This document shows positions 15,001 through 59,772 of a stretch of DNA of 64,000 nucleotides, one piece after another. A program made the translations under genes and the position numbers. This DNA comes from an uncultured bacterium (GTDB lineage: Bacteria > Verrucomicrobiota > Verrucomicrobiia > Verrucomicrobiales > DEV007). The notes under the pieces are model-generated. The model did no database searches. It saw only the letters and a program-made list of their open reading frames with translations, and was not told where the DNA came from. Every line of letters begins with the position of its first letter. Position 1 is the stretch's first letter. The DNA lies in contig CAXBMO010000003.1 in the NCBI GenBank assembly GCA_963977015.1, positions 256,001 to 320,000 on the forward strand, read 5' to 3'.

Positions 15001-17021
15001 ACCCCGTTGTTCTGATCCCAGTTCGTGGCATCAGACCAGTTTCCGTCCCCCAGATCATTATCCCAGACGTAAGTGCTGGATGTGACTGGATTCACGAAGG
15101 AAACCAAGCGATCCCCTGAACCCTCGGCATCCTCCGGGTCCGTTACTGTGAAGCGGATTTGTCGAGCGGTGGTTTCGGGAGTTCCGTTGGCGTTCACGTA
15201 GCTAACGGCTCGCAGGGCGGCCTCGTAATCCGCCACCGAAGCGGTGCCGGTGAAAACGATGCGATCCTGCGTCGTACTAGGATCCAACGTAATCCCTACC
15301 GGCAACGCTCCCGCCGCCAGAACATCCTCAGGGAGTCCCCCGCCGACGATCTCCACGACGGCACCCGCCAGATTTGCATCATTGCCATCGCTGACCGTGA
15401 TCCCGGCATCGATCACTTGAGCGCCAGAGGAAGGTGTGTAGGACAAATTGCCAGCGCTGGTCGTGACCACCGGTACTTCGTTGGCACTGCCGACCCAGAC
15501 TTCCACGTTTCGGATTGCGTAGCTACCCGTTCCCGGCCCGAACGTCCAATCCGGGGCACTCCCGCCGCTCGGACCGTATTGGTCCCCAATGCCTGCTCCG
15601 CCGCCACGAGTGATGCCGAAGAGCGTAGTGGCTTGCGTTTTCTCGGGATTGGTGAAGGCAAAAACCTGAAATGAACCGTGTCCGCTGCCGGTGCCGCCTC
15701 CCCCGTCCTTCCAGTCGTAACGGCTGTCGCTGGAGCCATACAATCCACCTCCATTTCCACCGTAGTTGCTCGCCCAAAACTCGATAATGCCGTCCGCGTA
15801 TTCGCCCGCAACCACATTCGGGTGATTGGTCTCGACGTGCAGATTGGTGACCAGGGTGCCCGGCTCCAAAATATTGCTGCCCGCCTTGGGAACGCCAAGC
15901 TTGGTCGGGTCGGTCGCCCCGCCGGACTGGAAATTGGAGACATCCATGGATACCCAGACCCAATAGTCTGTCGCCCCGCCGGATGCGCCTTGCCCCAACT
16001 CGATGAAATAGCCAACCCGGTCGTAGCTGTAGGTGCCGGCGGTGATGTCCGATTGGATGGCTGACGCGTTGTCTTTCGTATACGCGTCCTCAAAATCGAA
16101 CTGACCGTCATCCACCGCATACAACAACCGAACCCCGCTCATCCCGGTATCGCTAACCACTCCCCCCGGAGCGGCCGTCAAGTAATGCGCGTGATCCAGC
16201 GAATGAACCTCCGAGTCCTGAGCCAGGTCCGCCTCAGGGAGTCGACGGACGCCCTCGGACAGCACCTCGTCCATGAGTTCACTTCCGTGGTGGGAAATCC
16301 CGAGAATGTGCCCCTGCTCATGCATCAGTGTGGTGAGCAAATCGATCCGGTTCTCAGACTCGGGTGCCATCGCAACCATCTGAGTGTTCCCGTCGCTCAA
16401 GGCGGAGAATTCTTCGTCATCTAGAGGCGTTTCATCAACGAACCATGCCTTACCTCCAGCGTCGATATCGATCGTGATGACATTCCCCTCTGTCGCGCCG
16501 AGGTAATTTCCGGGCAAATCCACCAGCTGGTATACGACATTAGCCAACGCAAGAGATTGCTCCTCGCTCAGCCCTGTCAGGCGCCAACGTTCCGCAGCGG
16601 CGGCAGCAACCTGTTCCAGTTGTTCAGGCGTCAAAGTTTCAATTGCCGAATCAGCGGACACAACGATTTCGCCTTCCGCCTCTCCTGCCACCTCATCATC
16701 CCCATCGGTCGCCAATTCGCTCTCTTCTGCCAAAACATAAACCTCCGTTTCGAGCAACGCCTCCGAAGTGCTATCGAGTGCTGCCGGTGCCTCTGCCTGA
16801 GATTCCGCCGACGCCTGATTATCAGCTGCGGTATCCGGTGCTTCCTGAGAAGGTTCTGGAGTCGATTCCGATTCTGCGTCCGGCACACCTCCATCCACAG
16901 GAGCGGCAGAGTAAAGAATGCGTGGCTCGAGGTTTTCGAGGAGCATTTTGCCATCGGCAGACTTTTTGGGTTCGGATTTACCACGGCCCAAAAGGCGGTC
17001 CAGGAAGGGGTTATGTTTCAT
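1..17021 (-). CDS. Giant LEPR-XLL-type surface/adhesin protein A (partial, 3' end outside the window, >5670 aa)
   Basis: Hand translation from ATG at 17021 gives MKHNPFLDRLLGRGKSEPKKSADGKMLLENLEPRILYSAAPV, paralogous to the starts of genes B and C. The same frame reads sensibly at 16290-16322 (HEQGHILGISH) and at the window edge (..IHVGGALTTTGGG). Its absence from the ORF track fits having no stop codon inside the window. It contains many K.G.GTLTL.G.NTY.G.T.V..G autotransporter-associated beta-strand repeats. Not every codon was checked by hand. Confidence 0.93.
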   Translation of the reverse strand, partial: MKHNPFLDRLLGRGKSEPKKSADGKMLLENLEPRILYSAAPVDGGVPDAESESTPEPSQEAPDTAADNQASAESQAEAPAALDSTSEALLETEVYVLAEESELATDGDDEVAGEAEGEIVVSADSAIETLTPEQLEQVAAAAAERWRLTGLSEEQSLALANVVYQLVDLPGNYLGATEGNVITIDIDAGGKAWFVDETPLDDEEFSALSDGNTQMVAMAPESENRIDLLTTLMHEQGHILGISHHGSELMDEVLSEGVRRLPEADLAQDSEVHSLDHAHYLTAAPGGVVSDTGMSGVRLLYAVDDGQFDFEDAYTKDNASAIQSDITAGTYSYDRVGYFIELGQGASGGATDYWVWVSMDVSNFQSGGATDPTKLGVPKAGSNILEPGTLVTNLHVETNHPNVVAGEYADGIIEFWASNYGGNGGGLYGSSDSRYDWKDGGGGTGSGHGSFQVFAFTNPEKTQATTLFGITRGGGAGIGDQYGPSGGSAPDWTFGPGTGSYAIRNVEVWVGSANEVPVVTTSAGNLSYTPSSGAQVIDAGITVSDGNDANLAGAVVEIVGGGLPEDVLAAGALPVGITLDPSTTQDRIVFTGTASVADYEAALRAVSYVNANGTPETTARQIRFTVTDPEDAEGSGDRLVSFVNPVTSSTYVWDNDLGDGNWSDATNWDQNNGVPDTGTEVAVFRVVDGTVDLGGATITVDEVQFETSGTLTVTNGTLIANTITMSGGGTVDLFVEIDTATDFTLTAGQLNLHNPNNDLTGTVTATTGATFGAVLDASGGAAGNLNVNLDGATFELLPAASTEIQGAMAYLFNGNDTDLPGDSTQLATKILGGEVYFAQESDFLAFWGNELLGLNNSGNPSDPNSFGQTFVGRLTVPVTATTTLFRHTSADDANRIRIDLDGNGTFDSGAEDPYGADRGGTYTTSAIAVTAGQTYNVAIQAREGGGSSRLQPEVSFDNGATWERFDLKTDAVPQGVFNGTVTVSNASVIDLSTGFREATITSLVTTAGATVTTNSADFGQKWTAASVQVQGDATFAGNNAVNVTLGGLMETAAADLSFEGNAVFEFTAANTYSGTTTVTDDATLSLAGPTSLGDGTITVENGGSLIAATGTYTSDIFISGSGNANSEGALTKGTDGNVFWNANVTVVDDAEIRSTGGNEWLFDAGVISIASGKTLTLDADNRLNFRSSASITGDSTTTLQISGTDRVDMEVGIPDFHGTISVGSDGSDGHEVWGRLDVHAANGLGSNVGSVHIRGSEGTLVLRNGRTFEKDFFIEGDGRGTEGAIRNDNNSNTINGSITMTGDASIHVNDVSLTVTGAVTGGFELTKSGAGLLDLHQSNSMSNFLLGGGSVRIHQEDGLGGTTSLGIDSGEALELDFGAIGPVTFDATSTLNALTLNGGKFDLVSGEVLMGETFTLNLGGASELGSGTDARLTIANPLDMGLGSLVFSGDGDFVVTGDIVGDVNTGFVASPSDINGLQAWYDASTLSLNDGDVVTAWADQSGNGRHLVSYTGSPTFETNEINGLPAVRFDANNENLQIDPAVTNKEYFAGDVYLVFRAGDNRTTFGPSWGAPIGVKDGDDNDRMWMLEGNQDRFWGSELPASVTRNGVEIPSASNFDMSATTGNASMGEYMVLQVAAGPNNGTQVREYIVGNRTDAWSNSLFDTAEVIAFDHQLSVNEKLAVEAYLASKYAIAGSFQVPAFSNDITKTGSGTISLSGDNSYTGEVNVEGGTLIVGHDNALGLGSDSVPDAGSDVVNLSSGATIAFSGGVTVTGENISGLDGRDATRSGTIVNLDGDNAFLGNITASTSPSELDLTISSESGTLTLGTAGSHVMDVGFARLNLTGAGNVVVNSDISGETVSGVVSGIRGYVFANNAYGEPGDADQIQEILTSDLLDLNGDADFNAMFSDLNRNDNYAATFIGKLVIPDLNAGAPYDVKFTGITADDGLQIYLDTSGDGAFESGELILNQDGYTTNVPEVTVSIAPGIYDIKLRHREGGGGSNFQPQIDVGDGNGWQILDPGNMQSGVDLVLVTDPIKELIKTGTGTATLAGDNSLYEASYSVTEGTLVAASNTAVGDSSGTTTVADGAVLALDDTLAGSALTIAGETMTLNGNGTGSGALVNIAGNNTIEATTTLVAELASLGEIGIGSLADTLTIAADIDLEFSKLNVYGPGDIVMTGVISGNTGSQDILAPFAGTFTFDNTSTGDTGGWTLASGFLASDRSGEVEAVATSGGTLGGSSGGDAAHPTLRLVSPEFKLDGINNVITFDLHGGDSNGRDIGGADVDNLADLPASSQGQSGFQGLAIRNVATGDYVMSRANVSDGANSDGLTMDLTALYIADPDAIYTAEFVDFFDGGWGWVRLDNVIMPGQELVGTYQPDNSLVQQGGGTLTLTGANTYSGGTTIQSGTLLAANATGSATGTGDVTVETDGVLGGAGVVSGNVIADGGEIDPAGTGVAGVLAMASLTSTASSTFTAELNSGSNDAVVVTDTVNLTDVTLNPITIGGFAAADGVQLTLIDNQSGSAVTGTFTGLADGDEVTSLASGDIKAYISYNGGDGNDVTLSFFDTANPAPVVVDGLDGPTEFAVQVVGNTVQVVKDPNGTPEVIATRPLAAAHIEINGDDGAAGGEGNDTFILDYSDPKLLQARITVNGMDPVAGQGDQLVITNGTFGAVTHNLIAGDSGNLDLDGDGITDLTYTGLEPVDMTGSTVDDLIFNLPAGTDNARLTQNSGTGELTLESTDSPVHFELTTFTAPSGSVTINGGVGDTLTIANDLDLGAATFTVNLPSINLDADVVTTGNQTYNGAVIVDSATGLTAVTVTFSDTVNLNSQILTLDVSGTGVMASSMNGTVNAGGSLVMNGTGDLTISGTMTGNTFTGLINAGSVELVDHTNDLGDLGGSSWTVEAGATLTAHIDGNDSSLGHENVAINLNGGILELDDLNQASGILTTDSFAGAATQDNANGVYDNSGSNDSRLGDFGGGGNDTGDVPIDGFTGRWDTDWNLDGGTGGRTSYVRINSGSLTFTAAPDYTPGTGNSLVNYHKANDNSNLARLMDLGDSDATDEYWFSGLLEAPTVGGGTIFGEFVLNFGSEANLDRSVRLGFDTAGNAILEAADGSSTQTVTGTAFSAATTHLIVGVIDVNRTGDDTITYFLDPTDVTTRAQIAATAAQTLNVTHDVVRSGDTLNQFRFQGHKGGSDNGDQNAGILFDDIRFAGSQGELFGFIAPVAPQVGTVAHDVTMTSDSTISMLSGLPGAVLGDLVVTGGADRTLSVEAADAGQNLEFTNTLMSGAATEEVTISMTGNPQVTLNNVSGDPGFTASGSGTVFLPTANTYTGITTIKAGATIQLGNDAGLGVEGTIDSGTVIESGGTLDINGQRAGATGNEFVQVEGAGVGGQGAIVNTGAGQISAFRNITLTNDATFGAENRWDMRASGGASVFDMAGFNLTKIGASELVIASTDIQNPGDVEITEGIFRIEGAVSFNGTGTITVAGGADLDFWDNNEAQAVNILLQDGGDITVNGSSSGVGPTLNGSVTLVGGTGTILTDERGLIIDGIVTGAGTLRKTGNNTLTLTNSLNDFSGDADVTNGTLLVTVDGALGNTSGATNVSSGGTLEISGAVDLTIAETINIAGLGESGSGALRSSGGDTTIGAAVTVNLTDDATIRSVGGTLTLDTGLDTLDHVLELDGTGDFVVNGIISGLAAGGLEKGGTGTATLTSQNTYLGQTSIDSGTLIVTRDGGLGASGGAGTTVETGSALYFDGGFDYTTLEAITVSGTAEGGTVGNLSGNNSFDGSIQVMSDSDPVVGTFTGGDNGEGLDLLGDFLYAVNVRGTAELPVGDANFTTEGNEPNVTIIANSDVLAWKTPNFGASANDDNLDVIMQSIRHGGSGGATMDVEFNGLTVGEPYKAQLMFYEENANRTFDIYLDGKLLIEEYAAGVSTNVGSVFSYEFIATATSHTFQLGGAGDDNPVLQAVTLEQNTGYAGAIGTAHLTAVAGELTLNGAVNLDISGIDVTGAGNVSIHGDVSGTGPGSTITKLGAGELTLAGNNSYEGETTVSAGTLVASHDNALGSLAGGTTVASGATLALDNQGGAGLTIAEDLTIIGNGVGGTGVIRNDVGSNTLTGTIDVMGVGSLGAGHATIASDADTLTIAGDATFAQLTFDGDGDSVVNGQLMNGFSAEVLLSQNFENFGDGPDGIGASQTLIEGWVNDTTDDVDWVSDKGGTGSGDTGPSVDHTLGTTSGTYMYVEASGASAGGKTARMISPQIDLTGFTAAQLDFFYHMWGNTIGTLSVQASTDDGATWSGDLFSLTGEQQENQAESYLQAIVDLTPFVGSSNVRLQVTNVTGSTYSSDVAVDDFRVTALSAIQHPGEVVKSGTGTLTLTNANTYSGVTTVAEGTLAVANDNALGTLDAGTIVADGAVLALDNTIPATNLTIAENITLGADATNPGVLRNVVGDNTVSGNLFAEASATGEIRIESLADTLTISGDVSLEVAGITIDGDGDTVVSGDILAGTEVVNVYDATVIADDPLIYWRFGDADQSNGATAVNAATQASTLGTAGNGTYLDTSGTIDPAADSPIAGGDAIAIRGDLKEGVGRSFTANFPGTTATFEGWFRGDADPHAGGSYDPALFSYEGSGAGGSGNEFIAIISGNNLDIVANGATSSTSITKGELFNGNWRHLAITFDSSGTGSGSASIYLDGQFKETVTNNSWDADLSSSGQFVAGWEQDGALNNNGQTFQGFVGDMAEVAIYGAALDATTIENHYNQGLVTPVTPNNTLTKDGVGTLTLTGTNTYAGTTTVSVGTLQVDGGSITQTDSVVMEAGILQIINDGNVTVNNAVTNGVGEGQLLVDDGTMTVGNGFDVDDLRVGYETGTATLTVSDGDVAIGDGDGQFLIGYRDDGTPSGDTVGTVDFSGADSVIILVDDVLAGYSADPSRASVGGSKGTLTLSSVGDNTVVADNVRLGYTTSANNQAVRTSLHLGGADNTFNVDTFVVGDLKSPATVDIVSGGTFTLRGNSNAETDLRIGDNNDAPGTGTNPQSSHLDLSGGTFNATLDQLAIGLHNNGSGSGKGELTFEAGTVSANAIVLADTDIGGTSSNDAATQGTINLNGGVLQFGTLSQGGGTSAFNWSAGTIQNLTGQDLTNVDVDINLVGTGTQIILIDAGQSGEFQTAAEIIGGTAGGTLVKNGAGSLTLQGASTYVSATDVEAGILLADNAAGSATGSGNVTVRNAGTTLGGDGAVAGTVTSVGGTVSPELGLAEDLGTGSLTLDSASTLTFQINGLTPGVNAGYDQLDVTGTVDLNSDAGTGATLNLTLNPGVNPGDGAIFVLIDNDGDGTTPGDTVSGAFAGLPNGAALTLNDGTNDYVFTIHYDKETAESDTNGNNVVLVSHGIAETSVELVSNGSTLDLVITDINQESADQIDVSVQTIDTVDYYVIKDTNSPSLSMSTSIAAADVNRVSENEIHVRVSPVTGGLIVNSDFTGDVGDNGTDSFTFSGPAPITFAGDVTIQAETINIGADVTSAGEQTFDGAVTLTSAVTLAGTNITFEGKLDSDSEGTKRALVVNTSGDGVTTFGSTVGGVFDLASLTTNADGSVVLAGSVTTSGSQTYNDAVSLSGNRTLSGGSVNLIGAVTSGGNNLTVSAGTIDIQGGVGGGGGNILLTATSAGIHVGGALTTTGGG
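2750..3485 (-). other. LamG/concanavalin-A-like domain within gene A (approximate bounds)
   Basis: Translation YDATVIADDPLIYWRFGD...NWRHLAITFD...IYLDGQ...FVGDMAEVAIYGAALDATTIENHY matches the Laminin-G3-like pattern. Confidence 0.8.
3962..4484 (-). other. MAM domain within gene A (approximate bounds)
   Basis: DDVDW...TGSGDTGPSVDHT.GTTSGTYMYVEAS...ARMISP..D......LDFFYHMWGNTIGTLSV...DVAVDDFRV is the typical MAM signature. Confidence 0.85.
10990..11430 (-). other. PA14-like domain within gene A (a second copy lies at about 14150-14600)
   Basis: NYAATFIGKLVIP...TADDGLQIYLD...GIYDIKLRHREGGGG. The second copy reads GQTFVGRLTVP...SADDANRIRID...GQTYNVAIQAREGGG. Both have the DD dipeptide and E.GG motif of PA14 domains. 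Confidence 0.75.
11950..12600 (-). other. LamG-like domain within gene A (approximate bounds)
   Basis: GLQAWYDAS...VTAWADQSGNG...PTF....INGLPAVRFD...AEVIAFDHQLS..EKLAVEAYLASKY. Confidence 0.7.
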
Positions 17022-17095
17022 GTGTAGACAGGTGCGGATCCTCCAATCACAAAAATTGGCGGAGCAAAGGGGGTTTTGAGAAAATGGGGTGTATT

Positions 17096-17539
17096 TTAGG
17101 CACGAAAAAAGCCTGCATGTGGCTTAGTCGTACATTGCAGGCTGTTCGCTGAATCTTGGTTCCAAAAGGAAAGTGAAAAAGAGGGTTTGCTTCCTCGGGG
17201 CTGAAAATTCCCGCCAAAAAGCAGGGCGTAGCGCCTACGCATTCCGGAAAGAGTTCGCCCAACCGCATCGGCTCGTCGGCGAATCTGGCTGGAAATCGTC
17301 GAAACCCTTCTCTCCACGAAACGGAATTCTCCGATCTCGAAATGAGGCAACCACGAGAAAAAACAGATTGATTGTCCAGGCGCCGGAGCCGTGTCCGTCG
17401 ATTCGCGCTCCGGTGAAGGCTCCGACGAGAAGACTTCTGGCAGATCTCCCACCGCATCCTCATCCACCAACAGGGACCGGTTCGGCACAGGGGCTGCGAA
17501 AACCGTCCAAGTGGATAATTGAGGTGTGGAGATTACCAT
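17096..17539 (-). CDS. Leader protein A (147 aa), unknown family, paralog of 38225..38734 and 58231..58734
   Basis: Gap-free alignment of about 110 residues with the two paralogs: MV.S, W11, DED, PERE, CF[FY]SWL, RRA[DN]..GR, Y..LFGG. Conserved residues use synonymous codons (DED = GAT GAG GAT here, GAC GAA GAC in the others). Confidence 0.75.
   Translation of the reverse strand: MVISTPQLSTWTVFAAPVPNRSLLVDEDAVGDLPEVFSSEPSPERESTDTAPAPGQSICFFSWLPHFEIGEFRFVERRVSTISSQIRRRADAVGRTLSGMRRRYALLFGGNFQPRGSKPSFSLSFWNQDSANSLQCTTKPHAGFFRA
17105..17143 (-). terminator. Intrinsic terminator-like hairpin in the leader of gene A (putative attenuator)
   Basis: Minus strand reads AGCCTGC-AATGTACGACTAAGCCACAT-GCAGGC-TTTTTT. 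The loop can also pair ATGT with ACAT. It ends about 83 nt before the ATG of gene A. Confidence 0.7.
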
Positions 17540-17623
17540 TTCTGTAAGCTTTTATAGCTATCCAGCCTGCCAATTTGGTGAATCTGGCACCGAAGCGCAG
17601 GCATCACGATTGACTAAGGGCAC

Positions 17624-17680
17624 AGTTTAGCGGCAATCCGCCGAATTGCGCAACAGATTAGCTATTATCCTTTTGTATAG
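17624..17680 (-). promoter_or_regulatory. Conserved box CTATACAAAAG-N16-TTGCGC, followed 18 nt later by TAAACT (putative activator site plus sigma70-like promoter)
   Basis: Box at 17670-17680, TTGCG at 17649-17653, TAAACT at 17624-17629. The box and 16-nt spacing recur upstream of the other two leaders. Confidence 0.65.
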
Positions 17681-17746
17681 ATGCGCCAGCCAAAACACAG
17701 CTTCCTCAGGAGAACCCAACTACCTAACTTTTCTTAACCATCGCAT

Positions 17747-17767: not shown

Positions 17768-17770
17768 CCG

Positions 17771-20700
17771 CTATTGCTCCAACTGAAGGATGGCGTCTTC
17801 GGGGTTGGTGGCGTCGATGATCAATCCGTAGATATCCCCCAGGGTCAGCTCTTCCTCCGTGCTCAATCCCGGAATCAAGCCGCCTCGGAAGCTTCCGGCC
17901 CGGAAGATGGACGAACTCCCTCCTTCCATCGCGAATATCGGCGAGACTTCCTGAATCGTAATGCTGTAGACGCGGTCTTCCAACGTCACCCCGGACAGGG
18001 ATGCCGACCAGTTGCCCGCCGCATCGGCTTGAACGGTCGTCGTGTAACTGAAACCACCAGCTCCATCGCTGATCGTCACGACAATCTGAGCGCCCACCGC
18101 TGAGGTGCCGGCGAAGAACGGCGTCAGCGAGAATGCCGGCGGCAAGGTTGGCAACACGCTGGATTCCCCACTCCGGATCGTTGACGGATCAATGACCACT
18201 CCCTCGGGAGTGATCAACTGTCCGTTGAGGAACTGGTAACCGGAACTGCCATCCAGCACCTCATCGAGACGCACCCCGGCAAAGACGCCGGAGTCGCCAA
18301 AGCTGTTCAGAAGGCTCTGCAAATTGCTCAATTCTCCAGCCGCACTTTCTTCCCCGGCAGGAGTCGTTCCCGTTGCCGTCGCCGGTGTATCCCCGGTATT
18401 GGTCCCGGCTGCGGACGCCGGTTTGGTCTTGCCTTCCTGGATCACCGAAACCTGCAGCGCATTGCTTCGGTCGGTGCCGTCTTGAACTTCGACCACGAAC
18501 CACCTCGTTCCCGCGGCCGGATCGCTAACGTCCTTATTGCTGTAGGCCACCGCGCGCAAGGCTTGTTCCATCGCCTTGGACGACACCCCGCCTGGTCCCG
18601 CCGAAATGGTCAGGGTGCCGGAGCTTCGATCGAATCTTTGGCTCAACCCGGCCGGCAAGGCGATCGCAGAAAGGCGGTCCTCGTCCGGCTGATAGCCGCC
18701 GTGAATCTGAATGGTGGCCGATATCACCAAGTTGGCTTGGGTAACCTGGATGTTCGGGAAAAGCGCAATCGGTCCCTGCCCCACCCCGTGGACCAGGCTG
18801 TCACGGATGCTGACACCGAGCAGGACCGGCACCAGATTGTCGGATTCGATGCTGGTGAAGTGAACGGGCAGCAAAGCCGGATTGGCGGCGGGGAAGGTGT
18901 AGTTGCCTTCGCCGGATCCGGTCGAATTAAGCTGGGGGTCGGGCCCCAGAACCACCAGTGCGTCGCCGGGCAACGTCGTCGGATCGAGCCCGTGAACGGT
19001 GATTTCCGTAGTTTCGCTCGGTTGGACGCGGAAGGCGTCTTCTGCAGTGCCGCCGTAGATCGTTACCGCTGCGGCATTGACCGTACCGAGCCAGTTCACG
19101 AAAACTCCGTCTGCTTCCGGGGTGGTGCTGTTACTATGGTCGGCATAGACGGTAATGCTTCCAACCCCGGCATCCAGAGCCGCCGTGCTCAGCAGCGTGA
19201 AATTGCCCGCCGTCGTCAGGATCTGATCGCCGGTCGTGGTGATGTCGACTCCAATGTCCAGGGACGCGCCGCTGGTCACGTTGAGGCCGCCCAGATTCAG
19301 CGCGCTTGCGAAGGTGGTGACGCCGGTGCTGACCGTGGTCAGGTCAAACGCACCGCCGATCGCCTGAGTGGACAGAGTTCCTCCGATTAACGACACATGA
19401 TCCGTCAACGTGATGGCGCCGCCGTAAGTTTGCGCCCCGGATGTGGCCACATTTCCTCCCAGCTCGCTTACGCCGGTCACGTCGACCGAAGCGGCGCTGA
19501 TCGTCGATTCACTATCAATCCGGTCGGCGCGAAGAACGCCCACTCCACTGATTGCTTCTGCAACGCCGGCGCCTCCGCTCAAGGTCAGGTTGTTCCCGCT
19601 ACCGGCTACCGTGTTCGCAAAGTCGACTCCTTCACCGTCCGAATCGGTATCCACAGCCGTCAGGGACACATTCGCAGTCAGGGTAACCGGTCCGTTGAAC
19701 TCCTGTTCGCCTCCGGTCATCAGATTGGCGCCAAGGTTGATGCTGCCGGCATTCACCGTCAATCTCCCGGCCAAGCTCGAAGCCGCGGTGAAATCGACTC
19801 GATCCGCCGAAACCACCTCCAGATCATTGAACACACCGCTGTCCAGGGTGCCGGCGGTGAGCGTCACACTGTCGCCCGCTCCGCGAAAGACAATGTCGTG
19901 CTTCCCATCGGGATTGGCGTCTCCGCTGTCGTTGTCGACCCCCGCTCCGTTGGTCAAAACCGAATTCGCGATGCTTCGAAGTAGCGTGCCGTTCACGCTG
20001 ATCTCCAGGTTCCCGCAGTTCATCACAATACTGGCCGTATCCGGTGAAAACGAAGCCGGGTCGCCGCCAAATCCCGGAGGGAACACCTTGTCCGTTTCGA
20101 TCTCGATTGCCCCTTTACCGCTCACGGTGATTGACACCGTTGCAGTATGGGTTGCCGATTCATCGTCACTGATGGTGTAGGTGAAGGTGTCGACAATGGT
20201 TTCCCCCTCGGCGAGGGTCTGGAGGTAGGCTGATTCCCGAGGGTCGTAGCTGAAGCCGCCATCCGGATCGACTGAAACCGCCGCGCCGTACTGGCTGAGC
20301 GGGTCAAAGTCTGAAACCAGAACATTCGTTCCGACCACGTCCCCGGCATCCGCGTCGGAGTCATTCGCCAGCAACCCTTCGGCCACCGAAACGGTCAACT
20401 TGGTGTCTTCGTCGGTTGCTCCACTGTCGTTGGCCGCCACGGGGTCGTCATTCCTTCCCTGGACTTCGATCGTCAGTATACCCGTATCTTCGGCCCCGGC
20501 CTGATACCCATTGATCACCAGATTATCCAAACGACTAATGTAGCCTGAGACTCCCGAATTATCCGACCAGGTGAACCGGAACGTGACCGGAGATGAGACG
20601 TCCCGGAACTCATCGCCTAGCTCCAACTCATAGGCGGGATAGTTGATGAAGGAATCGTTTCGCGTTGTCGGGTTGAATGAGCCTAACACTGGATTGCTAC

Positions 20701-38206: not shown

Positions 38207-38224
38207 TTAGGTCATGGCGATCAT

Positions 38225-38734
38225 TCAATCGCCGGAGTTGGAGAGGGAATTGAAAGGAACAATCCAGATTGGGTCGGATTGTCTGACACAAAAAAAGCCT
38301 GCATTTAGCTGAAGAGCACCTGGCAGGCTGTTCGCGGGAACTAACGGGTTTTGATGAGACACAAGTGGACGAAGGGGGGAGGTTCTCTCCCACGGCCAGG
38401 ATTTACCCCCGAAAAGCAGGGAGTAACGCCGCAGTAGTCCGAAGAGAGTTCGCCCGATGGTATTGGCCCGCCGGAAGGTCTGACTGCAAATTGCCGAAAC
38501 CCGCCTTTCCCAAATGCGCAACTGTGCGCCGTCCAATTGGAGCAGCCACGAGAAAAAACAGACCGGTCGCCACAAAACCGCCGACAGCACTGTTGACTCG
38601 CGTTCCGGGGGAGCACTCGAGGTCAACACGTCAGACTGTTCCGTAACCGAGTCTTCGTCCAAAAACGTGACACGTTCCGGCACAGAGGCTACGGAAAGGA
38701 TCCAAGTTGGTAGATGTTCGCAAGAAATAACCAT
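38225..38734 (-). CDS. Leader protein B (169 aa), unknown family
   Basis: Paralog of the other two leader ORFs with the same motifs at the same positions. Its stop codon is 18 nt upstream of the gene B ATG. Confidence 0.75.
   Translation of the reverse strand: MVISCEHLPTWILSVASVPERVTFLDEDSVTEQSDVLTSSAPPERESTVLSAVLWRPVCFFSWLLQLDGAQLRIWERRVSAICSQTFRRANTIGRTLFGLLRRYSLLFGGKSWPWERTSPLRPLVSHQNPLVPANSLPGALQLNAGFFCVRQSDPIWIVPFNSLSNSGD
38290..38329 (-). terminator. Intrinsic terminator-like hairpin in the leader of gene B (putative attenuator)
   Basis: Minus strand reads AGCCTGC-CAGGTGCTCTTCAGCTAAAT-GCAGGC-TTTTTTT. Confidence 0.7.
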
Positions 38735-38843
38735 GTCAGCGAGCTTCCAAAGTTATTCAGCCCTGCCAATTTCGTGAATCCAGACACCCGCCTCTTCATC
38801 ACACGTGAAACTATCTTTGCCATTTGCCTCAACCCAAGGGACT

Positions 38844-38876
38844 ACGCAATCGCGAGATTGTAATCCTTTCGTATAG
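38844..38876 (-). promoter_or_regulatory. Conserved box CTATACGAAAG-N16-TTGCGT upstream of leader B
   Basis: Box at 38866-38876 and TTGCG at 38845-38849. No clean -10 hexamer is visible in this copy. Confidence 0.6.
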
Positions 38877-38961
38877 GCGCCGGACACAGCCCCTCATCCT
38901 CTGACAGAACTCAACACGGCTTCAGGTGCACCTTTTTCATCAATCTCAGCGTTTCCAATCT

Positions 38962-56900: not shown

Positions 56901-58212
56901 CTATCTCTCCTGCCGCCGAGGTATTCTCCACAGTCTGGACCAGCATACTACCGGACGAGGTCCCGAAGACTTCAACCGTGAAGTCCATGTCGTTGACTTG
57001 GGTTATGCCGGAATTGCTGAACGCTTGAACGTCCAAAATCGCACGAGTCAGGGTAATGCTCGGCTCGGTCAGCACAATCGGGACCGAAACCTGCCAGGTT
57101 CCCTCGGTGTGGATATTCAAATCCGGAGCAAAATGGCCTTCAGCGCCCACTGTATCATGGAAGCCGTTGAGTTCCTCACTTCCATCATCCACCTCGGTGA
57201 CGGTGAGATCCCCCGGATCCTGAACCCCATTGGTCGTCCACGTGATATTGCTTGCCGTCGTTCCTGAAACCACACGATCGGTGAAATCGGTGGAGAGGAT
57301 CACTTCATCAACCGCAGCCAAGGCGAAATGCTCGCCGTCGAGACTGCCTGGCGCAGCGCCCTCCGCTTGGCTGATCATCGGAACGCGTCGCTCACTGGTC
57401 TCGAAAACCTGATACATGATCGACGCTGAATCTGCGGATTCTTCCAAGCCCATGATGTGCCCCTGCTCGTGCATCAAAACGCTGAGCAAATCGAGACGGT
57501 TATCCGCCGCGGATTCGAACACGGCGATCATCTGGGTGTCGCCTTCGCTCAGCGAAATGTACTCTTCATCGTCCAGTGGCGTTTCATCGAAAAACCAGGT
57601 TCGACCGGCCGCATCAATATCGATCGTGATGATGTTATTCTCTGCCAAGCCGAGATAGTCCCCGGGCAAATCCACCACCTGATAAACCACATTGTTCAGA
57701 GCGAGGGATTGCTCCTCGGTCAACCCCGTCATTCGCCAACGTTCCGCCGCGGCCTCCGCCATCCAATTTACCACATCCGGACTCAACTCTGAACCCTGCG
57801 CTTCATCCGAAAACTGTCCCCATTCATCGACCTCCAACAAACTCTCCCCTATCACCTCCATCGCATTCTCTTCTGCGTCGCTCTCGATCGGAGCTGCGAA
57901 CTCCCCGCTCTCTTCTCCCAACAGGTAAACTTCTGTCTCAAGAACAGACTCCGTCGTGACATCCAGATTATCCTGAGCCACGGGCTGGGATTGGGACGAT
58001 GACTGTTCGCTCTGTGAAACAACATCGGGTGCGTCTTGAGCCGGCTCTGAACCCAATTCCGCATCTGGAGCACTGCCTCCGTCAACGGGCGCAGCCGAGT
58101 AGAGAATCCGTGGTTCAAGGTTTTCGAGAAGCATCTTGCTGCCTGCCGGCTTTTCTGAGCTGGGTTTCTTGCTGCCGATGTGACGATCGAGGGAGGTCGG
58201 TTTCTTTTTCAT
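38962..58212 (-). CDS. Giant LEPR-XLL-type surface/adhesin protein C (6416 aa)
   Basis: Complete ORF in the track. It has LLENLEPRILYSAAP, HEQGHIMGLEE, four LamG-like modules (about 55460-56080, 53600-54260, 48490-49130, 47160-47810), VCBS domains, long beta-helical repeat tracts, and nearly the same C-terminal 400 aa as gene B. Confidence 0.96.
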   Translation of the reverse strand: MKKKPTSLDRHIGSKKPSSEKPAGSKMLLENLEPRILYSAAPVDGGSAPDAELGSEPAQDAPDVVSQSEQSSSQSQPVAQDNLDVTTESVLETEVYLLGEESGEFAAPIESDAEENAMEVIGESLLEVDEWGQFSDEAQGSELSPDVVNWMAEAAAERWRMTGLTEEQSLALNNVVYQVVDLPGDYLGLAENNIITIDIDAAGRTWFFDETPLDDEEYISLSEGDTQMIAVFESAADNRLDLLSVLMHEQGHIMGLEESADSASIMYQVFETSERRVPMISQAEGAAPGSLDGEHFALAAVDEVILSTDFTDRVVSGTTASNITWTTNGVQDPGDLTVTEVDDGSEELNGFHDTVGAEGHFAPDLNIHTEGTWQVSVPIVLTEPSITLTRAILDVQAFSNSGITQVNDMDFTVEVFGTSSGSMLVQTVENTSAAGEIAFDFPAPLRLSNGESYELRISSVGQGGGNNSGLDAVSVYGLVHPSSTIFTLDFEDNPGSSLFISGGSGASSVDNSVAALGATNNTGAGATDTVWGMKSEVGNEFSTATLTFNASSYDSGAALAALNALTPGDYQLVTEYDQYVVEKNAKFGLTLNGVNGGSGDSRGGANFWRVHNVGHGGLGSAAPGDDSGDNAFSHVSISTENNAGTSAKNPAILTIVAPGETPTGVNVFEQGQFSSMRLEFWNTGSGDSSIPAEIYYDNISFSAIALPAVTDPLVNLTFDADSASSGDSLTGTANSGSLGGNATVSGSLTYADSTVTGELAAQFDENNNVVTYSIPAGTIGIDSDFTVAASVYIDGNQSQYDRILDPFFEFDDNTTAVTFKSTEQTIYRTGALGAGWHHLALTFDADASPTTGRGVVRAYVDGIEVAANTNALRPDFSAGLMLNLGAQESGNRPMTGRVDDVVFYNSLVLPDDIAAIANPVRAVYVNDSWTNQSDITNGDGDLEAVGTQTATFGNNAFGTLQDAVDAIDTLRDVTLIVNEGDYSGETLDLSAFSNDITVKFVEGNSTLGGLIGGDNVTIELGGVDGVHNDATTLAIESGDFSGVLSGIGELTKTGSGVLTLGGENTYTGSVVVESGRLILDGGTMGTVIQQGGTVQIGADDAVDSATIEGNYELQVGGILEVDFFGADDANSRDAGTVDTGNDYLIVNGDVTLAGELSLNYTLPNDVTTGDQFTIIKSTGTISGAFSNGTVTVGGYTFEVQVNDFGVDGSDVVLVAVNDAPELSNVQITSGDEGTQTRLSGTILDAEFNGDGYTIAVDWADPNDSGTKTYDLADLGANGTYNATTGEFELWHTYADDDPSSDSSNTYTVNVQVTETLGYQLQALYGFDAGNANDSTTNNNDGSTIHGSGIAFIDDPERGGVVSGSGTGYIEVPHSDSLGEIDDQLTVSFWIKAEAPVDDQAINKSWFRFLRKGNESGSDGTPTWFINRSGSTDQVNIRVDTFPNDDVTGDHNQNLNYNRGGAVLDGNWHHVTYVLDNGTSSEYIDGSLNHSQTYRHGNGLSNTDVLQLLGKSTADAINGLMDDIGIWSRALSGDEVGQLFGGATIPTENIFSQTVSVTTTVSNAAPVISVGTGDSNAETLSETDAGISASGTLTVTDAGVLDTEDLTVESVLVTGDANGIADATLQGMLGFSSDSLTLDASGVGTIDWDFSSGSEAFDHLADGESLMLAYTIRATDDDTGFGEHTVTITINGTNDAPEAHADTDESVEAGGESNGIAAVNAEGNVITGVGTTNGGTDFDVDTDDDPSADDGSVLVVSAQYSGGGTPVGGNSGGQMSGETVVDGQYGFLTIQPNGSYVYTLDDNTSDTLAEDEFATDEFTYRIANETPEEFALLDIEPNGGQTATNAISINGYARNTSGNLSEQSFISQTGQAFSVAIDAAGTGSVDWRDRRADGSADSPVDLGEDFIKNNHGIIEVTLGTLPAGTYLATSYHRDPQFEQSDTIKVLVNNGDGSGLVDTGQRGTAGLSAPGVSGLSEENLAATAAHFTFTADGTNDVIIRFDGTEGTNKAETPLNGLQLFYLPDVNAVSASTLTVMVQGSNDAPEITGGPDSAELTETNAGLSTSGSLTVTDPDQSDIVTGAVSLAVSGDDPADPSRPSDAELLAMFSVDPATPGQWLSGSETTKTLNWTFDSGSQAFDYLPEGQSLVLTYTLTATDDAAAPLSDSETVTITITGTNDVPVATADTDEATEAGGDGNSTPAENAEGNVLTGTGTTNGGTDVDADFNDDVAVVTIEYSGGGSPLGTNGGGTVDGETIVDGQYGRLTIRPDGSYTYVPDQEATDHLATGQSVSDVFTYGSANEQAQQILIDIQADGGRTADGAISVEGGANFAGNEGFVDRAYTTANGLSFTLSIEDTNAIGNDAGSVDWRDRGDSNLTSDLAKLAEDFVKNSSGIIRVTLGELPAGTYEVTSYHADAQHTQSEAIQVLVDNGDGNGLVNTGQTGNANVAFGGVNGLTDADVESTAAQFSFVADGTNDVIILFDGTAASDRETPLSGLLLNFIPTVAPESESTLTITVNGTNDVPQITVETASGDADSAALTEGNGTLSASDTLTVSDPDFTDTVSAEVTGVTVANGQTPVSNGDLEAMLTVAPAAPVNGSATSGQITWTFNSNSERFDHLSDGEVLTLEYTVEANDSQGGVDEHTVTITITGTNDAPVVVDDTAATTEDAAAIDIDVLANDTDADSGDTKTVVELNGSTTLTGLSELGAAVSHTGGGIFSYDATSAAALQALADGETVEDTFTYTMEDSSGEERTATVRITVTGEGAIEIDTRLSMPDTFANRAPGDDGTVDTVSVALNASGDLEIQVNGTLLRTVSATVLGNTPDLDIQGSGDVDAIAIGDLGVGNFANVTINANGGADMVTFSGSSASSFSGLLSVNAETINLNADITATGFTLSATGGTVTQLATATLDSGSGTIEIDADGAVNLAGTVKTTGNLDIDAGTGTISLPGADVSGKIALVTSGDASLENATGIDFATTTIGGDLNATATIGDITNTGGALTVGGMADFNATTVDPGRGGIVNQLPSLANVGGFWDFEGGTPLADKSSNGNDLTQSGTTDQRPVIGAVSASGNGWAPTNLGNSATFNGNDYLDIPASAYTGDDFTFTIAGRSNTGTWRVMLASDDLALLNHSGSLRLRTQSPSDGDDVVSGIYTDNDWYLTTMRYTKATGLIEVFVSTNTGIAGEPVLMETWLATNPIEKFRIGGDGISGIGGFDGWRGELDFIAFHNEALDDSEVQQMFSKFTTGNGNVAAVNLGGDGNTLEVGGALGLTTGSATINSVGAIDFKTSNVSELDVVASGAISNTAGTVTATGLASLIGTSIDLGGTNAVVFGDLLSLTSAGNASVTNNGDLALGASTIGGDLSARANGSITDSGTVAVTGGAQFASTQVDADLELDQLAVSGSIGLNTTGSGGNALIVNTGTIDFSSTDIGGDLDVTATSGNITNEGGTVSVAGMANFQATGGAGDLSALTAVWDFDGSDPLADKYGNGYTLSAAGSSLPTFVTATDSGNGWTPSELADGNVAQFDNSQNVLSIPNSVYSGGSFTFSVAQMRTNPNYGYDTLLGSNRFRYQNVSGNLQGQLTSPGGTFGGSEPLTAGDWYLITLRYDHTDKSLESFVTTKDGTIADGPALTGSASGTDGLSNATDFRIGGDGSSGIGSLDSFEGQLDFASFHDGLLTDEQLEEMLAIFQVGYSHESVIELGGTNTLAVTGEIGVETNGDATVVNATSIDLKSTSSIGGAFTATATTGDVTVNHAVTMGGDYILTGEDVNFTSTVDTGTHTLTITNTGTGEAQGIVSGEGNLVKAGSGTWTLSQDNTYSGDTSVIETGTLEVTQPSALPGTASVSTDATLHLLSDGINDFDNAFSGDGRILVTLSGASGNTSLLGANSGFTGLLELETDGSPTGNKLSGNPGLDASATIRINEGTQLFSSGTIVSKIEVSGSGNTETRGAIRLNGSLSGQITLLGDTILGIQTTNGTISGDIVNGTAGPVTLTIGAPNQGAGNVNITGKIEDGVGMGVVSLEKVGAGTLTLSGDNSYSGTTVIVDGTVVAGSDTGIGSGDLYFGSSDASSPATTTVGALDLSAFSAAVSNLYFFTHSPLHNVVTIGAGKTLTVGDGTTPVDVIFGPNIAGGSTTNVLFTGEGSLDVNGNGSSLFQLGGATGSNYGGATVDMSDLASADIDLGSSGTLRVGFAGNSGGGAASTLILADTSTVTAATISVGAHTGGVAMQRLHLGSIENTLNANTILVGPGDYTGTRSSGTLDFGTSSGSVTIRGAAGGSSRADLQIANGTTGTSGSPTGTVDFLDHGADLLIDDLIIGGRDRGSGGTTATLSFNQGSLDVTSLTMSNRKGSNVSGQVTSILNLEGGTATFGAIAMGLNSSSATSANGGATATINVSGGTVNVTGGISLASATGSVDSVSSGTLNLIGGEVNVGGDITVDAAGIGTQNAVIDLKGATLSLGGNDIGTLANPIGTFTFTSGRLEDVGEFNRAYTQTGGDLQIGGDAATGTMEIAGDLTTSSGDLEVDIIDAITDVLQVDGNATLGGTLTVTGVSPDRDVYLLIDLIDNADTLSGVFTNANVSGAIVDVGGVDYEIVYNGGDGNDVMLVKASPTIVYVNDQWSSLGDGIVVDGDLETTGTAEDAVVGYTAFGSIQAAVNALGSNSGTIIVNGGDYSSDAVDLNATVGNVALQLVNDSENTESTVTIGSLQSGSGDTVVLGQHGTAVHLTVGNSTNSTISGVISGSGSLTKTGSSLLYLTGTSNTYTGGTVIEQGTIRIQADGSLGAVPGAFDGANITLNGGILKNNGPSVDLVANRGVTVTASGGRIDVRGGTTMTINGVISGSGVLEKHDGGELIFTAQNTFDGEILLTNGTLTLDATAGNTLAATNTLSIGRAGGTAFDTELNVNSDQTLAQLNYRFDITGTVIGNTTNIASAATLTTGGFINGIVDSGTHSDSTTTAATLTMTGGKFVVNSGSTDISIGIVDSQFGNERRNYTLDLTGLNEFEATTTGTFYLSPGGRDDADLILAATSTITADAVSLGGWNSTPTMKLGETTFIHADTITLGGNLPSAAGNANGGQSEISFQSGLTAPVLTIRDLAGTGRADLIVGMGGTQNTANTGTLDLTGGTVDALLDEVFLGDATNRAGGIGILTFEAGTLDATSLSVGRTSEVGTDHLGTGTLNQNGGTLTVGTLILADEQAGDATAIYNLAAGRLEATTIDAGDGTAVTFNWTGGTIANLAGSDLSIESDVSISVTGANNQVFDAEASQTITVAGVLSGTGGYTKAGEGTLDLTGANTYDAPTVIAEGTFLLNGSLISGTPGTITVQGDATLGGTGITNATINAAGTVNPGITFGDLATGDLNLGAGSTYTVEIDGITPGDGSGHHDQVAVTGSIDLKLTPNVVLVTNRLAEDQDTIDFLTTNFGANVTTGLFSSFSQAEQDILEAADLVIVSRATNSGDYTNSEAETAFWETLETPTILMSSFLARSSRWDWVDTGGLASNLSAAGNETAVTTSGRSDPLFEGVATPADLYNSNYDAIVSAGVGDGKILATGGSGGHIIAARWNAGDALGADGRVAGGDRIFIGSWTGHNVEILTPEGHLVLQRAVGELLSPTLEVTVTSGPVAGASYVIVDNDGTADAVTGMFRNLAESATVTATGGEKFTISYVGGDGNDVVLFGGVADANVAIDGSGNLVISDIGSDSSDDLTISRVTIDSTEYYEISDSDSSRVFSTTGIERSDIMRPNASTVRVATAKVTGGLIVNAASATPTFAVGSVTIASELTLTGEAVINAQTIVVNENLTASGVTLNAAAAGGSVSMAASAVIDAGSGDIDIDADGAVTLAVLTTTGNLAIDTNTGSITDIGAGFISIGGTADLTTTSGSADIILDQLDVTGSIALNASGTATIVNATGIDLRDSTVGGDLAATATSGDLNIAADVIVTSTTGGMTLNASGNFTFDVRAVLNAAGAVEVNLDPGVADGTGVVVNFLGRIDASAAVINGGQDEDVFRIQPSETTEITVHGHDPTTLPGDALVVLGPNPQLASTGTGKGTYTFPTANPALQPVHFTGIESDNLVPVLLGVSISDSLVHGVGQGPIALFSNIQVTQANLVTSATIQIHGGYQPDEDRLSAIVLPAGLSQRFDRSSGTLTISAGPGGVSAKAMEQALRAVAYSNKDLSDPTPGTRWFVVEVQDGTDRSNALQVSVIQEGKAKPASAVEAEGTPPPTAGTTPAGKEGASGELSNLQSLLNSFGDSGVFAGVRLDEVLDGTSAYQFLNGQLINPDGVVIDPSTIRSGESSVLPSLPPAFSLTPFFAGTSAVGAQIVVTISDGAGGFSYTTTVQADAAGNWSASLSGVTLEDRVYSITIQEVSPIFAMEGGSSSIFRAGSFRGGLIPGLSTEEELTLGDIYGLIIDATIPEDAILQLEQKL
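38972..40225 (-). repeat. Direct repeat, copy 2: 3' end of gene C
   Basis: See 17775..19035. 39089-39344 is identical to 17892-18147. Confidence 0.95.
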
Positions 58213-58230
58213 CTAGGTCGTTGCGATCTT

Positions 58231-58734
58231 TCAATCGCTGGAGTCGGAAAGGGAGGGAGTAAAAAGTCCGGTTTGATTTTCGGACACAAAAAGAGCCTGC
58301 TCGAAGCTGGGATGCGGATGGCAGGCTCTTGGCGGAACCCTGCGGTTCCGAATGAGAGAAAAATTCAAGGAATTGATCGTTCTTCTCCGGCGGCCAAGAT
58401 TCCCTCCAAAAAGCCAAGAGTAATCCCGCAACAATCCGGAGATAAATCGTCCGATCGCATCAGCCCGCCGGAAGGCCTGACTGAAAATCGCCGAAATCAG
58501 CTTTTGCGTGATGCGCAACCGCCCATTCTCAAATTGGGGCAGCCACGAGTAAAAGCAGACCGTTTTCCCGACACCTGACAACATGGTCGTTTTCTCACGC
58601 TCAGGAGGCGCTTCCGAGGTTGCAACTTCCGGCAGGGCAGCCACCGAGTCTTCGTCCACAAAAATGACGCGTTCCGGCTCGCTAACACCGCAAATCACCC
58701 AGGTTGTAAGTTGTATCGAGGAGGTTACCATCAT
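58231..58734 (-). CDS. Leader protein C (167 aa; the Met at 58731 aligns with the paralog starts), unknown family
   Basis: Paralog of the other two leader ORFs. Its stop codon is 18 nt upstream of the gene C ATG. Confidence 0.75.
   Translation of the reverse strand: MMVTSSIQLTTWVICGVSEPERVIFVDEDSVAALPEVATSEAPPEREKTTMLSGVGKTVCFYSWLPQFENGRLRITQKLISAIFSQAFRRADAIGRFISGLLRDYSWLFGGNLGRRRRTINSLNFSLIRNRRVPPRACHPHPSFEQALFVSENQTGLFTPSLSDSSD
58288..58330 (-). terminator. Intrinsic terminator-like hairpin in the leader of gene C (putative attenuator)
   Basis: Minus strand reads AAGAGCCTGC-CATCCGCATCCCAGCTTCGA-GCAGGCTCTT-TTT. The stem is extended on both arms relative to copies A and B. Confidence 0.7.
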
Positions 58735-58938: not shown

Positions 58939-58971
58939 GCGCAATGGTTCCCTTGTAGTGCTTTCGTATAG
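58939..58971 (-). promoter_or_regulatory. Conserved box CTATACGAAAG-N16-TTGCGC upstream of leader C
   Basis: Box at 58961-58971 and TTGCG at 58940-58944. It lies 144 nt downstream of the response regulator stop codon. Confidence 0.6.
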
Positions 58972-59115
58972 ATCCGGGCGCTTTGACGCCACGAAAGTGG
59001 CCTTTTCCTCGAAGTGCCGCATTTCCGGACATGATGATGGAGATGCCACCGGATTGCGCGAACACGACACGCCACCTCTAACCGCCATCCTTATCTTACC
59101 TTCCCGGTAATGACC

Positions 59116-59772
59116 TCAATCTAGGGAGATCAATCCTCGCCTCAGAGCGATGGTTGCTGCGGAGGTTCGGTCTTGAGCGCCAAGTTTTTCGAACATCCTG
59201 CGCAAGTGCACCTTAACCGTTACCTCAGCAATCCCAAGCTGCTCGCCAATGACCTTATTGGGACAGCCTTTCGCGACGCGTCGTAAAACATCCAACTCGC
59301 GCTCGCTCAGGTCTTTTTGCTGACACCGCCGCTCGTACTTGGCCTCCAATTCTGGCGGAAGAAAGGTTTCACCCTTTGCCACTTTCCGGATCGCTTCCAG
59401 CAGCTGCTCACGCGGCGTCATTTTCGACAAATAGCCGCAGGCCCCCGCTTGCATGGCGCGATAGACGGCTTCCTCAGAATCCTCCGCTGACAGCATTAAC
59501 GCATGGACGCCGGGGAATTTCGCCTGAATCCGAGAAAGCGCAGTTAGCCCGTGTCCATCCGGCAAATTGGCATCGAGCAAGATCACGTCAGGCACGGTTT
59601 GACAGTACCGCTCTACAGCTTCATGAACTGATTCAGCTTCGGCAACGATTTCAAGATCGGATTCCACCTCCAACGACGACGTAAGGCCTGAGCGAACGAA
59701 AAAATGATCGTCCACCAAGAGTAGTCTGATGCGTTTGGCTTCAACTCCGGTCATCTGATTTCTGCTGCTCAT
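59116..59772 (-). CDS. NarL/FixJ-family two-component response regulator (receiver domain plus LuxR HTH)
   Basis: IRLLLVDDH..VR.GL, DVILLDANLP (phospho-acceptor Asp), GACGYLSK, and LSERELDVL..VAKG..NK.I...LGIAE.TVK.H.....KLG...RT.A. Confidence 0.96.
   Translation of the reverse strand: MSSRNQMTGVEAKRIRLLLVDDHFFVRSGLTSSLEVESDLEIVAEAESVHEAVERYCQTVPDVILLDANLPDGHGLTALSRIQAKFPGVHALMLSAEDSEEAVYRAMQAGACGYLSKMTPREQLLEAIRKVAKGETFLPPELEAKYERRCQQKDLSERELDVLRRVAKGCPNKVIGEQLGIAEVTVKVHLRRMFEKLGAQDRTSAATIALRRGLISLD

Follow-up and report, generated by a model that had tools for sequence, protein, structure and literature searches.

In the pyrBI attenuator, a terminator hairpin is located downstream of a translated open reading frame (ORF), and the trp and his leaders are short peptides with regulatory codons, accompanied by an alternative antiterminator hairpin. 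The arrest peptides SecM, MifM, and VemP regulate the translation of exporter genes through a hairpin that masks the ribosome-binding site. In rph–pyrE, pyrE expression is reported to be set by how far the attenuator loop lies from the rph stop codon (PMC2784333); the terminator tR2 is described as being repressed by the translating ribosome when it sits toward the end of a coding region or only a few bases past the stop codon, and as working efficiently within the first 100 bp of a coding region (PMC4824070, Li et al. 2016); and the antitermination factors of pLS20 are described as encoded by the first genes of a 32-kb operon (PMC13401043). Here we analyzed a 64-kb stretch of DNA (hereafter, the window; positions 256001–320000 of contig C3 in the 6.9-Mb, 51-contig genome G000) from an uncultured member of the Verrucomicrobiota, in which giant genes for LEPR-XLL proteins are each preceded by a cassette containing a small ORF and an embedded terminator-type hairpin.

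The unit is built, in this order, of a promoter region, the small gene, the embedded terminator-type hairpin with its U-tract, the stop codon of the small gene, and the LEPR-XLL giant gene. We propose that it may work as a ribosome-occlusion attenuator of the rph–pyrE/pyrBI type combined with translational coupling, a reading to which we assign a probability of about 0.5. The cassette shares with these two systems a terminator-type hairpin located between an upstream ORF, predicted here to be translated, and the regulated gene, with no need for an alternative antiterminator, and further resembles rph–pyrE in that the 'leader' is a full-size protein gene, read-through in that operon being reported to depend on the proximity of the ribosome or the stop codon to the hairpin (PMC2784333). 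It differs from both in that the leader belongs to a new protein family, with an ORF that in 24 of 25 cassettes continues for 12–103 nt after the T-run, in that the regulated gene encodes a giant secreted protein, in that the four genomes contain 25 copies of the unit, and in that nothing ties its input to nucleotide pools. As in the late-positioned tR2 constructs, the hairpin is located ~400–560 nt into the small ORF, i.e., in the later portion of that ORF; tR2, however, was engineered in E. coli, whereas the cassette is natural, conserved, and dedicated to one class of genes.

The likeness to other leader-dependent devices is more partial. With the trp and his attenuators the cassette has in common an upstream ORF, predicted here to be translated, and a terminator-type hairpin ahead of the structural gene, but its ORF encodes 139–258 aa, is under purifying selection, and is accompanied by no antiterminator complementarity of the trp type. 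Its ORF is similar in size to those of SecM, MifM, and VemP, has a conserved region with a conserved motif close to its end, and precedes a secretion-related gene; in contrast to these systems, the hairpin is followed by a T-tract, the downstream gene encodes a substrate, inspection by eye reveals no signal-like segment, and stalling is only a candidate property. Finally, like λ N, RfaH/LoaP, and the pLS20 factors, the cassette heads a very long transcription unit, whereas in the small protein neither a NusG-like domain nor a known RNA-binding domain was found, a recruitment site was not identified either, and the ORF overlaps the terminator-type hairpin.

Layout of the array and its recurrence in the genus

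The elements of the array, all on the minus strand, are as follows (z-scores of the hairpins are relative to dinucleotide shuffles).

59116–59772, minus: response regulator of the NarL/FixJ type (REC and GerE helix-turn-helix (HTH) domains; Pfam, NCBIfam), 218 aa, upstream of the array
58940–58971, minus: box 3, CTATACGAAAG-N16-TTGCG, exact match, ~205 nt ahead of small ORF 3
58231–58734, minus: small ORF 3, 167 aa, new family; in-frame ratio of nonsynonymous to synonymous substitution rates (dN/dS) 0.25–0.46 versus ~1 off-frame
58284–58329, minus: hairpin 3 and T-tract in the tail of small ORF 3, T-run 80 nt ahead of the giant ATG; −20.3 kcal/mol, z −3.1
38962–58212, minus: giant gene 3, 6416 aa, LEPR-XLL N-terminus, with VCBS, PATR, Laminin_G_3, cadherin-like, and matrixin-like domains
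38845–38876, minus: box 2, exact match
38225–38734, minus: small ORF 2, 169 aa, stop codon 18 nt ahead of the giant ATG
38286–38329, minus: hairpin 2 and T-tract in small ORF 2, T-run 90 nt ahead of the giant ATG; −18.9 kcal/mol, z −2.1
17771–38206, minus: giant gene 2, 6811 aa, LEPR-XLL N-terminus
17649–17680, minus: box 1, exact match, with an internal sigma-70-like −10 match (GATAAT)
17096–17539, minus: small ORF 1, 147 aa, stop codon 12 nt past the start of the T-run and 74 nt ahead of the giant ATG
17100–17143, minus: hairpin 1 and T-tract in small ORF 1; −18.5 kcal/mol, z −2.9
3–17021, minus: giant gene 1, 5' part, running off the window start (8526 aa in full)
17103–17109, 38289–38295, and 58287–58291, minus: T-tracts 1, 2, and 3

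The original prediction, made from the window, had described an ordered cassette of a box, an ORF of 147–169 aa, a hairpin, and the giant ATG, in three copies. All of these elements were recovered in place and far above chance, but the array holds four copies: a search of the whole genome located a fourth cassette and a fourth giant gene (4990 aa) just outside the window, at C3:231727–247356, with the small ORF and a fourth exact box at C3:246742–247356. In this fourth copy, the stop codon of the small ORF is located within the hairpin loop. The further claim that the elements are individually selected within diverged DNA holds in so far as the cassette is real and selected; the core of the ORF, however, is kept as a protein and is not simply a diverged spacer. 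The assignment of the downstream genes to LEPR-XLL giant proteins was borne out, as giant 3 scores 19.5 bits against a cut-off of 17 for the LEPR-XLL family NF012209, all four array giants are above the cut-off in a six-frame search, and VCBS, PATR, cadherin-like, and Laminin_G_3 repeats are present.

The small ORF, recognized by the motifs [FY]xSW and SYxRLFGG or FERFY, is found ahead of 25 of 34 usable LEPR-XLL giant loci in the four genomes of the genus: 10/14 in G000, which contains at least 14 LEPR-XLL N-termini, 10/13 in G002, 3/3 in G001, and 2/4 in G003. For this survey, every listed LEPR locus was taken from the three other genomes, and three loci were dropped (L078 and L039, with no LEPR-motif match by pattern, and L054, with no usable match). 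The giants behind the cassette are encoded by genes of 15–38 kb.

A terminator-type hairpin in the 3' tail of the small ORF

The inverted repeat AGCCTGC-N20-GCAGGCT occurs three times in the window (17110–17143, 38296–38329, and 58294–58327) versus 0.08 expected, and a T-run follows each occurrence. Across the genus, a hairpin with a T-run is present in all 25 cassettes, located 53–106 nt past the motif and 38–158 nt ahead of the giant ATG. The folding energies range from −13.5 to −36.9 kcal/mol in 24 of the 25 cassettes and are −19 kcal/mol or lower in 16; the exception, L086, represents a poor automatic pick, and a separate fold at this locus gives a hairpin of −19.7 kcal/mol. The hairpin scan is lenient, finding some match in 42% of mononucleotide shuffles; only 40 of 1000 such shuffles fold as stably as the real sequence, and among 25 control LEPR loci without the small ORF, two reach −15 kcal/mol and none reaches −19 kcal/mol. 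The stem sequences vary widely among the cassettes, and the T-run is in frame 0, 1, and 2 in 14, 8, and 3 cassettes, respectively. In L032 and L051, nearly identical hairpin nucleotides are read in different frames, which, together with the varied frames of the T-run, places the constraint on the nucleotides and not on the encoded peptide.

Analysis of a MAFFT alignment of the four array copies with RNAalifold gave an invariant outer stem with 0 compensatory pairs, and the mixed hairpin set was misaligned. In the absence of formal covariation, the argument is therefore carried by the per-locus folds together with the shuffle and natural controls, a weaker basis than a structural alignment. Upstream complementarity to the 5' arm of the hairpin was no better than in shuffles (mean z, +0.2; 24 cassettes), so that an antiterminator, and with it a trp-type switch, is unsupported, and simple occlusion fits. 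In the Rfam search, only a tRNA reached the gathering threshold in the window, and nothing was found at E ≤ 1 in cassette 2. Altogether, the hairpin and T-tract appear to behave as a conserved RNA-level element of the terminator type on the sole evident path into the giant gene.

The small ORF is held open up to and through this hairpin. From the motif to the T-run, the ORF frame is interrupted by a stop codon in only 1 of 25 cassettes; the two other frames are interrupted in 15 and 9 cassettes, respectively, and shuffled versions of the stretch are stop-free 26% of the time. Apart from the single cassette with the stop codon in the hairpin loop, translation is predicted to end beyond the T-run, and the small ORF stop is 0–99 nt from the giant ATG or overlaps it; an overlap of the ATGA type (−4 or −1 nt) is found in 7 of 25 cassettes and a gap of 18 nt or less in 13 of 25. 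The original prediction held that translation of the leader decides read-through, and the ORF held open through the hairpin fits that idea.

The occurrence of a terminator-like hairpin and T-run in 25/25 cassettes would also be expected of a passive partial terminator, which constitutively stops most transcripts, so that expression of the small gene greatly exceeds that of the giant gene or the units are insulated from each other, with nothing being sensed. In operons, weak terminators commonly separate a first gene of high expression from the genes that follow. We nevertheless consider a passive element unlikely here: with the stop codon past the T-run in 24 of 25 cassettes, terminated transcripts would carry no stop codon, and degradation tagging would be the expected fate of the protein made from them. 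Such a design would be wrong for overproduction of the small protein, for which a terminator after the stop codon would be better, an arrangement seen in 0 of 25 cassettes.

A hairpin this close to the giant ATG could instead act post-transcriptionally, as a processing site, as a stabilizing 3' end, or by tuning termination–reinitiation at the giant start, and such a role is also suggested by a second inverted repeat at the small ORF stop in copies 2 and 3 and by the flanks GCGAA and UUCGU, which can lengthen the stem across the U-tract. The T-run that follows the stem in every cassette is, however, a hallmark of intrinsic terminators and would be superfluous in a hairpin serving processing or stability, and we regard a purely post-transcriptional role as very unlikely. 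The second inverted repeat, GCGAT-N6-ATCGC (38215–38232 and 58221–58237, minus strand), extends over the small ORF stop ~9 nt ahead of the giant ATG in copies 2 and 3, with weaker versions in copies 1 and 4, and may influence reinitiation.

The small ORF encodes a new protein family

Small ORFs 1–3 are paralogous, with 44% identity to the first copy and 42 invariant columns. Their in-frame dN/dS is 0.25–0.43 in the window copies, compared with 0.97–1.71 in the two other frames. Among 10 codon-aligned pairs of the family, dN/dS is 0.17–0.49, where computable, in the core (up to the LFGG motif) and 0.32–0.89 in the tail. The small ORF is a real coding gene under purifying selection, and its product serves some function in its own right. 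What had been taken for a leader peptide is thus a protein family (139–258 aa; median, 169 aa) and not a classical leader.

No significant match to the small ORFs was found in Pfam or NCBIfam, the profile of the small ORF gave 0 matches in the PDB, and the best score in the ESM Atlas (0.79) was under the informative level. Large protein collections contain only a handful of members, the single source-named one being a 'hypothetical protein' from a Verrucomicrobiota metagenome-assembled genome (NCBI); profile A4, searched against 1.84 billion representatives, gave 6 matches, and profiles A3 and A5 gave 5 and 3, the 'hypothetical protein' being among those of A5. An AlphaFold2 model of small protein 2, based on a 27-row alignment, has a mean predicted local distance difference test score (pLDDT) of 63.5. 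The sole confident helix (residues 69–108; block-mean pLDDT, 88–93) ends at the motif; it follows an extended N-terminal part, and pLDDT falls below 50 in the tail (residues 125–163). The net charge is −5 to −9 in the N-terminal 60 residues and +4 to +9 in the segment 60–112, which holds the helix. A complex prediction pairing small protein 2 with residues 1–110 of the giant encoded behind it gave a score (0.00) that speaks neither for nor against a complex. The idea that a PxRE segment makes the small protein a mimic of the LEPR leader was dropped, the hhalign probability being 0.3%. The small protein may have a second role, in which it modulates events as a nascent chain, partners with the giant, or acts as an antiterminator; the arrest-peptide and processive-antitermination roles discussed below are speculation.

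As an antiterminator or processivity factor of the λ N-like or pLS20-like kind, the small protein would attach either to the RNA of its own hairpin or to the polymerase, and would thereby carry transcription past the terminator and along the 15–38 kb gene. A mostly low-confidence model with one long confident helix, and a basic segment following an acidic N-terminus, would be in keeping with such a factor, as would the position of the small gene, always immediately ahead of the hairpin and a very long gene, and the divergence in step of hairpins and proteins among the cassettes; a two-gene system reported to head the pLS20 conjugation operon provides a precedent (PMC13401043). On the other hand, Pfam and NCBIfam gave no NusG or RNA-binding domain and no solved structure matched, a λ N-like arginine-rich peptide being outside the reach of these searches. 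Moreover, a trans-acting protein would leave the run of its own ORF through the hairpin unexplained, and the two NusG-family genes of the genome are on other contigs, all of which makes this role highly doubtful. The second of these NusG-family genes (G000 C24:54139–54420; 47.6 bits), found besides the main one on C1, adjoins no giant array examined.

The small protein is similar to SecM and VemP in size and in its largely disordered model, and the strongly conserved SYxRLFGG motif closes the sole confident helix 53–106 nt ahead of the hairpin. These features might point to an export monitor of the SecM/VemP/MifM kind, in which the nascent chain would stall at the motif unless the exporter engages, and the stall would uncouple the polymerase and lead to termination. 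The prospects of this explanation are slim, because no hydrophobic signal-like segment was seen in the three window sequences on inspection by eye, the profile has no similarity to the LEPR leader of the giants (hhalign, 0.3%), and the known monitors control an exporter gene and not a substrate gene.

An elaboration of the attenuator in which the small ORF serves as a licensing checkpoint is likewise rather improbable. Its ~170 codons would form a run-up track on which the ribosome must catch the polymerase ahead of the embedded terminator, admitting none but ribosome-coupled polymerases to a gene of 15–38 kb, and the SYxRLFGG nascent chain would tune the speed of the ribosome to a cellular signal, e.g., the capacity for LEPR export. 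If true, it would represent a new class of nascent-chain-controlled transcription attenuator, present in one copy per giant substrate gene.

Proposed mechanism

For the ribosome-occlusion attenuator that we favor, we infer from the sequence that the hairpin terminates transcription, that ribosomes suppress the hairpin, and that the arrangement is regulatory. No separate promoter was identified between the hairpin and the giant ATG, so that the polymerase must traverse the hairpin to transcribe the giant gene. Because the hairpin is located late in the ORF, a ribosome close behind the polymerase would cover the 5' arm and block formation of the hairpin. An uncoupled polymerase would instead terminate, leaving a transcript without a stop codon. 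Ribosomes ending the small ORF beside the giant start could reinitiate there, and the giant gene would be transcribed and translated only under efficient translation of the small ORF, providing a checkpoint before commitment to a very long mRNA. In the present array, the box, possibly read by the adjacent NarL-type regulator, would add control of initiation.

Several points weigh against this mechanism. Termination at the hairpin is read from sequence features, and the hairpins of the window, with their long loops and moderate energies, may be weak terminators. Among sequencing runs, six of DNA type contain part of window positions 33500–43400, and none of RNA type is listed for this segment. 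The mechanism would also require close coupling of transcription and translation in Verrucomicrobiota. Open runs counted from the start of the hairpin are similar in the other frames, with medians near 30 codons, so that the open-frame signal comes mainly from the segment that leads from the motif to the hairpin, and this segment may itself be simply part of the protein. In addition, the tail dN/dS given above fails to show a neutral peptide, and pure occlusion needs no protein under purifying selection, which leaves part of the system unexplained. The counts given for the cassettes overstate their independence, since paralogous cassettes are related.

Distribution and features of the giant genes

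The cassette was not found at 16 LEPR loci that represent other genera within the family and the order, and a search of 401 genomes from 67 genera of the order with the 27-member profile (best 8 candidates per genome) gave matches in this genus only. Counted without regard to the box, the cassette recurs ahead of 25 of 34 giant loci within the genus and was not found among the loci and genomes surveyed in other genera.

In G000, a second tandem pair of cassette-bearing LEPR-XLL giants (8967 and 12,571 aa) is located at C14:86262–151800 (L025, L050, L091, and L093), where the second small ORF begins immediately past the end of the first giant. In the first 110 residues of the cassette-linked giants (alignment A6), a basic MKKKP...LLxRL start and an acidic low-complexity stretch are shared in addition to the LEPRILYSAAPV motif, together with a second motif, VL(E/D)TEVxxL, near residue 95; the giants without a cassette (C12 and C11) have LEPRxLF(S/D)A instead. 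At the C-terminus (window positions 17771–17800 and 38962–39000; C3:247441–247470), giants 2 and 3 share an ...EDAILQLEQ-type end, and giant 1 has a looser ...AINQLQEKL; such an end may act as a signal for sorting or secretion. Downstream of the fourth giant (L087; C3:214000–232000), genes for an ABC ATPase, an ABC-2 permease, ABC_transp_aux/DUF7088, and DUF4340 are located in a row on the same strand.

Promoter/operator box and response regulators

The box CTATACRAAAG-N16-TTGCG has three exact matches in the window versus 0.01 expected from shuffles, and is strongly conserved while the surrounding intergenic DNA has diverged. The four exact boxes in the whole genome are all inside this array; with 1–2 mismatches, there are four further genome matches, no commoner than those of a reversed-pattern control. 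The GATAAT inside box copy 1 suggests that the box may be a core promoter as much as an operator. A box-like match on C17 with one mismatch, at the end of the contig, was dismissed as an unrelated chance occurrence. The ORF beside it (L013; C17:926–1975, minus strand) is reverse-transcriptase-like, with a YADD motif, and probably of the group II intron type. Between the box and the small ORF, a conserved block of the 5' untranslated region (GATTCACCAAATTGGCAGGCTGGATAGCT-like; 17545–17600 and 38740–38795 in the window) is present 30–55 nt ahead of the small ORF ATG in copies 1, 2, and 4 and is partial in copy 3.

The regulator upstream of the array matches Response_reg (PF00072; 1.1e-25) and GerE (PF00196; 1.2e-18) in Pfam. 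Detection of both the REC domain and the C-terminal GerE/LuxR HTH agrees with its proposed membership of the NarL family. Its top NCBIfam match is NarL, with 146 bits against an equivalog cut-off of 250, so that it is a member of the family and not NarL itself. It had also been called an orphan; no histidine kinase was seen in the 64-kb window, but the regulator is not strictly orphan, as a REC-only gene adjoins. A search for related loci with the regulator as the query gave only distant regulators from unrelated phyla. The neighboring genes here and the regulators at two other cassettes of the same genome are as follows.

60117–60191, minus: tRNA-Lys (UUU) gene, directly upstream of the NarL-type regulator
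60265–60819, minus: REC-only response-regulator gene, just beyond the NarL-type regulator
L088:4771–5526 (C37) and L089:4214–5038 (C23): PAS and AraC-type regulators directly upstream of cassettes

At the C37 and C23 cassettes, the gene immediately upstream thus encodes a PAS-AraC regulator. The neighbors of the C14, C6, and C5 cassettes are a porin, a 2-oxoglutarate (2OG) oxygenase, and FolD, with no adjacent regulator gene among the scanned ORFs. These different upstream genes argue that the transcription factor is a variable add-on outside the conserved cassette, and the transcription factor employed appears to differ from array to array. Both the box and the regulator of the NarL type, which the original prediction had counted among the parts of the cassette, are accordingly confined to this one array. 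A link between the regulator and the box is plausible, in view of their adjacency and the four exact boxes.

Novelty and biological meaning

The architecture had been put forward as one not known to be described for LEPR-XLL giants, and our search of the literature on LEPR-XLL, giant genes, and terminators, antitermination, or leaders likewise found no description of the cassette in the texts covered, supplementary files being outside this search (that of Kamneva 2015, PMC4452313, for example, could list the neighbors of giant genes). The passages covered of a preprint on giant genes (10.1101/2023.11.21.568195) make no mention of it. The mechanism class, ribosome-dependent attenuation, is already known. 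New are the protein family, the systematic placement of a terminator-type hairpin in the predicted translated tail of a small ORF, and the dedication of the device to giant genes.

The reach of the finding is limited for now to the single uncultured Verrucomicrobiota genus in which the cassette was found. If confirmed, it would define a new protein family whose members are now labelled 'hypothetical', and provide a compact, portable element for reporter constructs. It would also extend ribosome-occlusion attenuation from the operons of nucleotide biosynthesis to giant secreted proteins. How bacteria handle the transcription and translation of single genes of 15–38 kb is largely unexplored, and the presence of a stereotyped device ahead of 25 of 34 giants suggests a dedicated gate that ties entry into the giant gene to ongoing translation.

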